From contig CAYMVI010000004.1 in NCBI GenBank assembly GCA_964394075.1, positions 28,563 to 92,562 of the forward strand: a DNA stretch of 64,000 bases, written 5' to 3'. The stretch's first letter is position 1. Every line of letters starts with the position of its first letter. Positions 58,529 to 59,947 of the stretch are shown here, piece after piece. Origin of the DNA: an uncultured Eubacteriales bacterium. Its GTDB lineage: Bacteria; Bacillota; Clostridia; TANB77; UBA1234. The notes beneath the pieces are model-generated. The model made no database searches. It was not told where the DNA came from and was given only the letters and a program-made list of their open reading frames with translations. The translations under genes were made by a program, and so were the position numbers.

Positions 58529-59947
58529 TTATTCATTAACTCTCAATACTTTATTAATATATTCAATTATCGGATTTGTTCCATCGAATATAATGTTGTT
58601 TCCATCTGTTGTAGAAATAAATGTTGATGGCATTGGAACACCTGCTGTTGATTCACAATCTATTGTAAATTTCAAAGCACCATTATTTATCTTATTCTTT
58701 GAATCTAAATAATACGTTATTGTCCATGCCTTTTGGTCTACCGTACTCATTGAAGAAGCCGGAACCTCTTTACCTCCAATTGTTACTTTCAAGTTTTGAA
58801 TCTTCTTATCTGCTAAAATTTGCATTGTAATTGTGTCACCATATTTTGCGTAATATTTTTCACTATTTGATGTAGCACCTGCATTTACTAACTCAACTTT
58901 TAGCATTTGAGGATATGAGTAGTCTATAATTTCTGATCCACACATATCACAAATTTTATCACTATTAGAATCTTCATGTGGATCTCTGCTTATTGTGTAG
59001 TTACATTCTGTAACTGTACAATATCTTTCATGGAAAGTTTCAGAAATTCTTCTGTATGCTTCAGTATGATTTTCAGATTCAGAATGAGAGCATTCTGCAC
59101 AATATTTCATATGATATTGTTCTTTCTGTGCTATAGTTTCCGGCATATAATATTGAATAGTACATCCTTCATTTGCTTTTTCATAATTACATGTTGGACA
59201 TTTTATTGTATGATACCAATTTCCGTCTTGTATAGAAAACGAAATCTCGAAATCATGTAATGAGAAACCACCTGTCATACCGCAACCTTCTCTAATACAT
59301 TGTTTAGTATAATGTGATAAATCATCGTATGGTGTCGCTGCAACTTCTGATTCATATAAATGTCCTAATGATTCTTTTAAAATGAATCCACAGTCCGCAC
59401 ATTTTACACCAGTTGTACAAGTAGCTTCAGCATCTAAGTATCTGTGTTCATGCCCCGTTACAAAATCTCCCTCCGTTATATCTAATCCAGTCAATTCATA
59501 TGAGTGTACATTTATCAAATAAACCGCACCAGATTTATAATCAACCAATGCAACTTTCACTTGATCTTCTGTACTAGCATTAACAGATTCAATGTAATCA
59601 CCTATTTCTTTTACTCCTAAATTAGTAGCTGCAGCATTATCTACAACATACCATACAGAGTCTTCATAAGTAAGATCTGCATCAACTTTTGGAGCGAAAA
59701 CGCTCTCAAAAATTAAGCTATTTTTTATATAATATCCCAAATACGGATATGCAAGTGAGTTAATATTTGTATCTTGTTGTCTCCTAGAAACCGCACTTGA
59801 TAATATTTCTATGAAATTTTCTTGTTCCTTCTTTTTACTATCTTTTAAGTACCTAGTACCTGTAGATAATGCCATAGATGCAAGCATAACGGTAACTATG
59901 ATAGTAATAATCAAAGAAATCATCGAAATACCTCTTGAATTCTTCAT
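58529..59947 (-). CDS. Membrane-anchored protein with six Cys/His-rich (H-x-[KR]-[YQ]-C-x2-3-C-like) repeats and a beta-rich C-terminal domain; unknown function
   Basis: N-terminal TM/signal anchor MKNSRGISMISLIITIIVTVML; repeats HEHRYLDAEATCTTGVKCADC, HYTKQCIREGC, HTIKCPTCNYEKANEGC, HMKYCAEC, HERYCTVTEC, DKICDMC; RBS GGTGGAG. Confidence 0.7.
   Translation of the reverse strand: MKNSRGISMISLIITIIVTVMLASMALSTGTRYLKDSKKKEQENFIEILSSAVSRRQQDTNINSLAYPYLGYYIKNSLIFESVFAPKVDADLTYEDSVWYVVDNAAATNLGVKEIGDYIESVNASTEDQVKVALVDYKSGAVYLINVHSYELTGLDITEGDFVTGHEHRYLDAEATCTTGVKCADCGFILKESLGHLYESEVAATPYDDLSHYTKQCIREGCGMTGGFSLHDFEISFSIQDGNWYHTIKCPTCNYEKANEGCTIQYYMPETIAQKEQYHMKYCAECSHSESENHTEAYRRISETFHERYCTVTECNYTISRDPHEDSNSDKICDMCGSEIIDYSYPQMLKVELVNAGATSNSEKYYAKYGDTITMQILADKKIQNLKVTIGGKEVPASSMSTVDQKAWTITYYLDSKNKINNGALKFTIDCESTAGVPMPSTFISTTDGNNIIFDGTNPIIEYINKVLRVNE

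Follow-up and report, generated by a model that had tools for sequence, protein, structure and literature searches.

A glutamate at position 5 of the mature protein (Glu5) is the hallmark of bacterial type IV pilins. The class III signal peptide consists of a short hydrophilic leader ending in Gly or Ala, followed by about 21 mostly hydrophobic residues that start the alpha1 helix (PMC8179133). Modular pilins have been described in Streptococcus sanguinis, where PilB carries a vWA module and PilC a lectin module, and in enterotoxigenic Escherichia coli (ETEC), where CofB is the example (PMC8179133), and tip complexes can be capped by a subunit without Glu5 (PMC10191384). The gene considered here occupies positions 58529..59947 on the minus strand of a 64,000-nucleotide stretch of DNA from an uncultured Eubacteriales bacterium (contig CAYMVI010000004.1 of assembly GCA_964394075.1, positions 28,563 to 92,562), which is referred to below as the window. 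The open reading frame (ORF) is complete, with an ATG start, 472 translated codons and a stop codon at 58529-58531. Like the modular pilins, its product would join a small pilin-type N-terminal carrier to bulky non-pilin modules, for which tip-exposed adhesion is the expected role. It is read here, with about even confidence, as a type IV pilin-like adhesin of the modular sort, its stalk stabilised by zinc, belonging to an uncultured lineage of gut Clostridia. The known concepts of modular pilins and of zinc-stabilised mini-domains fit the protein, which deviates from them by the absence of Glu5, by sub-threshold scores and by an uncurated grafted module, and the gene does not appear to represent a new kind of system.

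An earlier note on this DNA, made from its letters and open reading frames, had recognized a single N-terminal transmembrane (TM) or signal anchor, and one strongly hydrophobic segment was indeed found, the 21-residue tract ISMISLIITIIVTVMLASMAL (aa 7-27; 59867..59929, minus strand, as for all parts of the gene given below). Its mean Kyte-Doolittle value is 2.49, the next best 19-mer of the protein reaching 0.78. The tract is alpha1N-like in the sense used for pilins and is preceded by a hydrophilic, Gly-terminated leader, MKNSRG (aa 1-6; 59930..59947), with a candidate prepilin-peptidase site after G6; the whole N-terminus reads MKNSRG / ISMISLIITIIVTVMLASMAL-STGTRY. In an alignment of 33 full-length homologues (42-93% identity, with three at about 30%), G6 is at least 90% conserved and is invariant wherever the N-terminus is complete, M9 and L12 are invariant, and S8, I10 and S11 are at least 90% conserved. 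Residue-level conservation of G6, S8, M9 and L12 would be unexpected for a plain anchor and therefore favours a pilin-like N-terminus over a generic anchor, a feature that the earlier note had overlooked.

The predicted structure is in keeping with this. In the AlphaFold model of the whole protein a continuous helix of about 55 residues spans aa 9-62 (starting at residue 4 or 9 across models) and leads into a small head of four to five short strands and two helices (pLDDT 83-84), the whole-protein model placing strands at 99-102, 129-136 and 141-148 and helices at 77-87 and 104-109. These roughly 130 structured residues, helix and small alpha/beta head together, separate the Cys/His-rich array from the membrane segment and were not mentioned in the earlier note. 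Modelled alone, the N-terminal pilin-like module (aa 1-160; 59468..59947) gave a pTM of 0.69 and a pLDDT of about 84. Furthermore, aa 1-148 are homologous to a stand-alone 158-aa protein encoded at 9989-10465 of locus L034 (hhalign 98.6%, E 9e-16), and the first 150 or so residues are thus a self-sufficient, pilin-sized module.

A scan of 185,579 species genomes for relatives and paralogues revealed 13 further loci that match the N-terminus only. Their proteins are either pilin-sized (143-261 aa) or large and modular (474-908 aa), and all 13 begin K-G-[IV]-[ST]-M-I-S-L-[IV]-[IV]-T-I-I-V. At two of these loci (L024 and L026) a 261-aa protein with the N-motif is encoded directly downstream of a type IV pilus operon; its first 35 residues align with the N-terminal module of the present protein (hhalign 96%, E 3e-9), and the two loci come from the same metagenome-assembled genomes (MAGs) as two homologues of the gene under study (L013 and L012). 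Pfam matches in the operon identify PilD (A24_N_bact 2.4e-30 and Peptidase_A24 1.8e-8), PilB (T2SSE 2.5e-51) and PilC (T2SSF 5.7e-30). It also includes a canonical GYSLIE pilin, together with PilMN-like and PilO-like genes recognized by position and size only, with no Pfam match. Repeated sub-threshold matches to ComGE, PpdD, GspG and PilA models were seen in the family and its paralogues, including ComGE in 10 of the 33 members (best E 0.008) and PRK10574/PpdD in nine of them, and two relatives have been named pseudopilin PulG by JGI. The GYSLIE pilin scores no better on the curated pilin models than do the proteins lacking Glu5, which suggests that sub-threshold pilin scores are normal for this lineage. 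At L034, the locus of the stand-alone 158-aa protein, a tandem pair of small pilin-like genes without Glu5 (158 and 175 aa) is found between genes for a GLUG/M26-like membrane protein and RecD2 (8224-16056), with a ComFC-like gene about 4 kb further on; a link with DNA uptake is possible.

Several observations weigh against a pilin-like identity. While the leader and the 21-residue tract agree with how the class III signal peptide is described (PMC8179133), the Glu5 that belongs to it is absent, mature position 5 being Ser11, and this position is Ser or Thr in all 33 homologues and in the small paralogues. As the small paralogues also lack Glu5, its loss alone cannot mark a tip cap. A conserved S24-x-A26 follows the hydrophobic tract and could be a signal peptidase I site. 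On the protein itself PF07963 stayed below threshold (E 0.36; 10.9 bits against a cut-off of 21.2), as did NCBIfam ComGE (16.3 bits against 49), and structure searches gave no pilin match. PilB, PilC and PilD were not found in the window or near any homologue, metagenomic relatives included, the gene lying outside a pilus operon; the association with pilus genes holds for the N-motif paralogue in two genomes that carry an orthologue (L024 and L026), and not for the gene itself or its orthologues. In these two genomes PilB is split into two or three ORFs (L024 6701-8354 and L026 6704-8354) and the pilus system may be decaying; the PilC, PilD and pilin genes look intact. A further point, concerning the stalk, is a sub-threshold alignment of the fourth and fifth Cys/His units to the RPA12 zinc ribbon (E 0.11), which suggests, as an alternative, pairing of adjacent knuckles.

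Comparison with the described systems reflects the same mixture. The protein differs from the modular pilins in having Ser at mature position 5, in giving no IPR012902/PF07963 match above threshold and in being encoded outside a pilus operon; its incorporation into a pilus is putative, and what is grafted onto it is a series of Cys/His mini-units that none of the curated libraries searched contains. Provided that its N-terminus is accepted as that of a pilin, it can be placed among them, as its carrier (aa 1-148) stands alone elsewhere and is fused to modules not restricted to pili, the Cys/His units occurring in more than 2,000 non-pilin clusters. It also resembles GspK, the cap subunit without Glu5, in combining a pilin-like N-terminus that lacks this residue with a large extra domain, whereas no sequence or fold similarity between GspK and the protein was detected, and in this lineage the absence of Glu5 is a trait of the class as a whole.

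The most distinctive part of the protein is the array at aa 166-336, which holds 14 of its 15 Cys and 11 of its 12 His residues, the other 301 residues containing one of each. With 32 other ORFs of the window as background, in which Cys makes up 1.16% and His 1.13% of residues, this enrichment has a binomial P of about 2e-8 for Cys and about 5e-6 for His. The six Cys/His-rich units that the earlier note had placed in the ectodomain were borne out, with ligands either invariant or at least 90% conserved, although the knuckles are 23-34 aa apart rather than the 30-40 aa it had given. Its proposed motif, H-x-[KR]-[YQ]-C-x2-3-C, stood for unit 4, which matches exactly, and for unit 5 apart from an x4 spacer, while units 2 and 3 fit only loosely; the general pattern is better written as H-x3-8-C-x2-5-C-x7-9-[H/C].

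Unit 1 (aa 166-196, GHEHRYLDAEATCTTGVKCADCGFILKESLGH; 59360..59452) contains H166/H168, C177, C183-x2-C186 and H196. It is followed by unit 2 (aa 212-231; 59255..59314), of the form H-x4-C-x4-C-x8-H with H212, C217-x4-C222 and H231, and by unit 3 (aa 246-262; 59162..59212), of the form H-x3-C-P-T-C-x8-C with H246, C250-x2-C253 and C262. Unit 4 (aa 279-294; 59066..59113) reads H-x3-C-x2-C-x7-H, with H279, C283-x2-C286 and H294, and unit 5 (aa 306-324; 58976..59032) reads H-x3-C-x4-C-x8-H, with H306, C310-x4-C315 and H324. The last is a variant terminal Cys/Asp unit (unit 6, aa 324-336; 58940..58978), H-x-D-x6-C-D-x-C-G, in which H324/D326 precede C333-x2-C336. Twelve of the putative ligands are invariant among the 33 homologues (H168, C177, C183, C186, H196, H212, C217, C222, H231, C310, C315 and H324), and another twelve are at least 90% conserved (H166, H246, C250, C253, C262, H279, C283, C286, H294, H306, C333 and C336), as are D326 and D334 of unit 6. 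These 24 conserved ligands would thus be enough for six four-ligand sites. Units 3, 4 and 5 are similar to each other (hhalign 63-88%), unit 4 reaching 88% with each of the other two. AlphaFold predicts a chain of short beta-hairpins across 166-340 with each CxxC between two strands, so that every unit combines four conserved Cys/His ligands with a CxxC-type knuckle at a predicted beta-hairpin, as in the zinc-knuckle class.

It was also observed that the Cys/His unit is a widespread repeat, a point on which the earlier note was silent. Unit 1 is a canonical copy of an uncurated GH..ATCT...C..CG...LGH repeat, of which distant members of the family carry two copies. In its fuller form, GH-x-W-x2-ATCTEPKTC-x2-CG-x3-G-x-ALGH, this is a Cys3His repeat of 28-33 aa (that of P0126 included), and in P0036, P0039, P0043, P0059, P0084 and P0098 it occurs in tandem with a 28-aa period, H-x-W-x2-ATCTEPKTC-x-RCG-x3-G-x-ALGH. 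The tandem-repeat carriers comprise many lipoproteins and surface proteins of gut Firmicutes. A HMMER scan with the array profile against 1.84 billion representatives (clusters at 50% identity) returned 2,116 proteins at E <=1e-3 and 430 at E <=1e-10, reaching 6,446 aa in length and up to 38 matched stretches in one protein. Units 2-6 correspond to shortened H-C-C-H/C variants that are present in repeat proteins as well, likewise in an extracytoplasmic setting; the H-x3-C-x2-C-x7-H form of units 2-5 is found, for example, as SHWHKCSRCDAKTGEEAH in P0070, and the HxDxxxDxxCDxCG-type motif of unit 6 recurs in the same unrelated protein. Unlike the homogeneous tandem arrays, the array described here has one canonical and five divergent units in a fixed, conserved order, and unlike that of the repeat lipoproteins it is joined to a pilin-like module, not to a lipoprotein or Sec signal. 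No meaningful Pfam assignment and no solved-structure match was obtained for the repeat-bearing proteins, and a full-text literature search for a description of the repeat returned nothing relevant.

The repeat-bearing proteins help in judging what the units may bind. Cys and His are conserved together, and P0032-34 show units being gained or lost as wholes. The last repeat of P0059 has lost its first Cys jointly with its terminal His, and in P0070 single B-type units stand alone between A-type units. The canonical repeat has an odd number of Cys, and the proteins are extracellular with strict anaerobes as hosts. For these reasons, the co-conservation of His with Cys, the odd Cys count, the extracellular setting in anaerobes, the joint loss of ligands and the isolated single units, one metal site per unit seems the most likely arrangement, with Zn2+ as the most plausible metal. 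The suggestion in the earlier note of a metal-binding module is supported in so far as the array resembles a zinc module. The units resemble zinc ribbons and knuckles (TFIIS/RPA12 and rubredoxin) in placing C-P-x-C-type knuckles at beta-hairpin tips, and the CxxC-x23-Cx4C of units 4 and 5 recalls the C-x2-C-x24-C-x2-C of a zinc ribbon; they differ in that the similarity is sub-threshold and that conserved His ligands lie beside the Cys. Moreover, the ribbons in question are cytoplasmic nucleic-acid-binding elements, whereas the array is predicted to be extracellular and single units stand alone in other proteins. Since single units occur alone and whole units are gained and lost independently, ribbon-like pairing of adjacent knuckles is less likely than one site per unit. 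A possible precedent for Cys-bound zinc in place of disulfides in a pilin of a Gram-positive anaerobe is PilJ of Clostridioides difficile, a type IV pilin reportedly found by Piepenbrink et al. in 2014 to have a structural zinc site; PilJ differs in its dual-pilin fold, canonical signal and single site, and no sequence similarity to it was detected.

The array is followed by a beta-sandwich and conserved tail (aa 346-472; 58532..58912), in agreement with the beta-rich C-terminal domain proposed before, AlphaFold placing strands from 348 to 433 with a pLDDT of about 90. Conserved motifs here are ..AKYGDTI.. and ..TTDG..[IV].FDGT.P.I.YI.K. The best local Foldseek matches of the sandwich are the Wzt carbohydrate-binding domain and Ig domains, while the full model gave only generic beta-rich matches against the PDB (TM <0.2). 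The whole-protein model was built from the 33-sequence alignment and has a mean pLDDT of 83 and a pTM of 0.39, which leaves the relative placement of the domains uncertain. The statement that no family could be named also proved correct. Neither the protein nor any of the 33 family members scored above threshold in Pfam, NCBIfam or PHROGs. Sequence searches of the PDB, whether started from the protein, from profiles of the family or of the Cys/His part, or from a canonical repeat array, gave nothing significant, the best matches being cytosine deaminase and the RPA12 zinc ribbon (E 0.1-0.3).

A search of 5.8 billion proteins recovered 34 homologue clusters, nearly all full length (463-494 aa) and none with a Pfam domain, and the conservation check proposed in the earlier note showed that the Cys/His ligands are invariant or at least 90% conserved in the 33 aligned members. 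Full-length relatives occur in 12 MAG species of uncultured Clostridia/Eubacteriales from the guts of sheep, roe deer, rabbit and human. In comparison with relatives of 93% identity, dN/dS is 0.04-0.05 for the whole gene; the N-terminal module has a value of 0.03, the Cys/His array one of 0.07-0.08 and the C-terminal domain one of 0.015-0.02, and all three modules are under purifying selection. More divergent relatives reveal how the parts have been combined. P0130 (1,564 aa) has the entire architecture of the protein followed by DUF285/BspA-type leucine-rich repeats (3e-118). The N-terminal module and the Cys/His array are kept in the much longer P0215 (821 aa) and in metagenomic proteins L039-L043 (819-904 aa), and P0215 ends with the same C-terminal domain, preceded by extra beta-rich sequence. 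Paralogues sharing the N-motif only carry Listeria-Bacteroides repeats or, in L027, a C-terminal array of the canonical Cys/His repeat. The modules added in relatives and paralogues are typical of surface proteins and adhesins, and the adhesin-like role once proposed for the protein is plausible in light of the leucine-rich repeat (LRR) modules of P0130. One further protein, P0134 (558 aa), has a Bacteroidota-like lipoprotein-signal N-terminus joined, from inside the pilin-like head, to a rear half homologous to the protein described here; this probably reflects chimeric assembly of the metagenome rather than a true fusion.

Taken as a modular pilin-like adhesin, the protein might work as follows. 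The leader MKNSRG and the 21 hydrophobic residues would insert it in the membrane with the N-terminus inside, and prepilin peptidase would probably cleave after G6. The head (aa 63-155, helix plus sheet) would complete a pilin-sized carrier, which by homology is also used alone in related genomes. Onto this carrier would be grafted the stalk (aa 166-336) of six beta-hairpin units of 20-35 aa, each predicted from conservation and spacing to hold one structural Zn2+ through His/Cys, Cys-x2-4-Cys and His/Cys ligands; zinc may thereby rigidify tiny extracellular domains in an anaerobe that is unable to rely on disulfides. The C-terminal beta-sandwich (aa 346-472) would be the likely ligand-binding end. 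Because the module is bulky and lacks Glu5, if it is incorporated at all it may be expected to form the tip of a type IV pilus or of a short pseudopilus, or else the protein may be membrane-anchored through alpha1N. Either way the distal domain could be held some 10 nm or more away from the cell, where it might adhere to surfaces of host, dietary or microbial origin.

A wider proposal, put forward tentatively and regarded as rather unlikely, is that the lineage possesses a whole class of type 4 filament subunits without Glu5, ranging from 143 to about 1,560 aa, along with an undescribed, widespread extracellular one-zinc mini-domain. The subunits may share K-G-[IV]-[ST]-M-I-S-L-[IV]-[IV]-T-I and work without the Glu5 salt bridge, and the mini-domain (H/C-C-C-H/C, 20-33 aa) may be in very wide use among gut Firmicutes, giving their surface proteins a rigid spacer. 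Should the main, modular pilin-like reading be right, the modular-pilin idea would be extended to an uncultured branch of gut Clostridia in which the N-terminal signal is missed by standard pilin models, and the pilin repertoires of gut metagenomes would have been under-counted. It would also draw attention to a very common, uncurated Cys/His mini-repeat, apparently an extracellular zinc-stabilised spacer for anaerobes without disulfide chemistry, which would deserve a family definition and a structure. Finally, it would supply a strongly conserved candidate adhesin for organisms known only from human, ruminant and rabbit gut MAGs.

A doubtful but serious competitor to the pilin-like reading is an ordinary Sec-dependent surface or secreted adhesin with the same zinc-stabilised stalk and binding domain and no link to type 4 filaments, its hydrophobic segment acting only as a signal anchor, or as a signal peptide that is cut off behind the S-x-A at aa 24-26. 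The conservation of that site, the lack of Glu5, of a curated pilin family at threshold and of a structural pilin match would all suit such a protein, as would the finding that the same repeats belong for the most part to lipoproteins and to large surface proteins whose signal peptides are ordinary. The organization of the gene is also compatible with it. A Shine-Dalgarno-like GGTGGAG (59953..59959) lies 5 nt 5' of the ATG, a promoter-like TTGAAA-17-TAAAAT (60001..60029; 10/12 matches in a consensus scan, and a consensus match only) is located in the 352-bp intergenic region common to this gene and a divergent helicase gene, and a terminator-like hairpin with a 10-bp stem and a T-rich tail (58455..58478) separates the gene from a convergent DnaI-like gene. 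With its own terminator-like element, ribosome binding site and promoter-like site the gene looks monocistronic, and it is far from pilus genes. Against a Sec-dependent origin stand the residue-level conservation of G6-I-S-M-I-S-L, which is atypical of Sec signal peptides and anchors, and the presence of the same motif at the head of the protein encoded directly downstream of PilD-PilB-PilC. The predicted helix, moreover, runs uninterrupted from the hydrophobic tract to residue 62 in the manner of pilins, and the first 150 aa are found by themselves as well, as proteins of pilin size.

The surroundings of the gene bear on a third, improbable explanation, namely that the protein is an accessory, such as a mating-pair adhesin or DNA receptor, of an adjacent conjugation-derived apparatus resembling a type IV secretion system (T4SS). 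To the left of about 52.4 kb the window is made up of housekeeping genes, with MnmA at 51272-52333, tRNAs, and SpoIVA and SMC recognized by N-terminal sequence. Then come tightly spaced plus-strand genes (52993-58454), beginning with a TraD/TrwB-like ATPase (52993-54654; TrwB_AAD_bind and TraG-D_C matches), a VirB2-like protein (54657-55013; T4SS_pilin, 24.5 bits), a VirB6-like protein (55022-55915; weak TrbL match) and a small TM protein (55924-56202). This T4SS-like set of four directly precedes, in the same orientation, genes for a DnaB_2/DnaD-domain protein (56422-57453) and a DnaI/DnaC-like loader (57468-58454; the orthologue in L007 scores 327 bits on PRK06835, with a cut-off of 215), an arrangement (53005-58454) that is conserved in the 12 MAG species; the set may be what is left of a conjugative element that became fixed, or else a T4SS-like module of the chromosome. 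Beyond the gene under study are a divergent HrpA-like DEAH helicase on the plus strand (60300-62552), a minus-strand 155-aa ORF with an N-terminal TM segment (62611-63078) and SbcC. The T4SS explanation draws on this conserved synteny and on a CD1115-family VirD4 encoded in some of the genomes (404 bits against a cut-off of 250).

Other observations separate the gene from the T4SS-like set. Its transcription is separate from theirs and convergent with it, and it has a promoter-like site and a terminator-like hairpin of its own. VirD4 is absent from one clade, and VirB4, relaxase and integrase were not seen among the called genes within about 10 kb on each side. Two frameshifts in the ATPase gene of the window isolate its Walker A segment (GTIGTGKTSS..., ~53330-53530), and a single frameshift is present at the same place, near residue 165, in L001, L010, L011 and L012; in L002, L013-L017, L019 and L020 the ATPase is intact. 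The ATPase gene is thus probably decaying in the sub-lineage of the window, and the strong purifying selection on the neighbouring gene where the ATPase is frameshifted implies that its function is independent of the ATPase. An alternative genetic code was considered for the broken ATPase and PilB genes and rejected, as table 11 gives uninterrupted reading of all other genes of the window and the breaks in the ATPase gene are frameshifts rather than stop codons.

The earlier note had placed the gene on an island and had raised a link to conjugative elements or prophages, which the comparative data do not support. Gene order is constant in 12 of the 12 MAG species, among housekeeping genes, with one flank always formed by DUF1858/MnmA, with or without an AMP-binding gene, and the other by PlsX/EF-Tu/EF-G (L007, L019 and L020) or by the CD1115-family VirD4 and DnaJ. 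The dS of the gene (0.75-0.86) falls inside the range of neighbouring genes (0.45-1.2), tRNA scans placed none at the block boundary, and its GC content of 32% is genome-like. Given this synteny, the neighbour-like dS and the lack of a boundary tRNA, the gene is a vertically inherited chromosomal gene and not the cargo of a mobile island; no megablast or tblastn match to phage and plasmid collections was obtained with its DNA or protein. Compared with L007, the window shows amino-acid identities of 44% for the protein, 46% for the helicase and 62-82% for the other genes; the gene for the protein, having the lowest identity in the block, is thus its fast-evolving member within a vertically inherited block, as expected of a surface protein. 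The more distant relatives are situated in unrelated chromosomal contexts, for example MetRS/TatD and serpin/ABC, a further difficulty for a T4SS accessory.

Less probable again is an extracytoplasmic redox or metal-handling protein, engaged in thiol-disulfide exchange or in the buffering or scavenging of zinc or another metal. The dense CxxC and His residues and weak, sub-threshold similarities to rubredoxin and zinc ribbons could be read in this way, and a redox module was among the earlier suggestions; nothing pointing to a redox role was found. No thioredoxin-like or known metallochaperone fold or family was detected in the searches described above, the CxxC motifs lie in beta-hairpin knuckles beside conserved His, and the presence of as many as 38 copies of the unit in giant surface proteins of many domains is easier to reconcile with a structural spacer than with catalysis. 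A prophage or phage-derived receptor-binding protein is hardly credible, having nothing specific in its favour beyond the earlier suggestion and the PHROG matches of the neighbouring 155-aa ORF, since the protein matches no PHROG, neither DNA nor protein gave a match among 50,697 phage records, no phage structural genes lie nearby and the gene is vertically inherited.

A few minor features of the window may be added. The 155-aa ORF between the helicase and SbcC has matches (E 9e-8 and 1.5e-5) in two PHROG families whose function is unknown, and it is kept in the closest relatives and absent or divergent in others. The helicase gene has a GC content of 47% and a GC3 of 53%, compared with 31% and about 21% in its neighbours; this elevation is limited to the gene and is seen in all relatives (35-47%), with L020 lacking the gene. 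In the chromosomal part of the window, a very large ORF of 2,288 aa occupies 21251-28117 on the minus strand. Behind a tRNA-Arg(TCT) comes a patch rich in GC (about 42% compared with 31%; window 32997-34039) with overlapping ORFs on both strands (33179-34009 on the plus and 33362-34039 on the minus strand), which may be a small tRNA-adjacent insertion.

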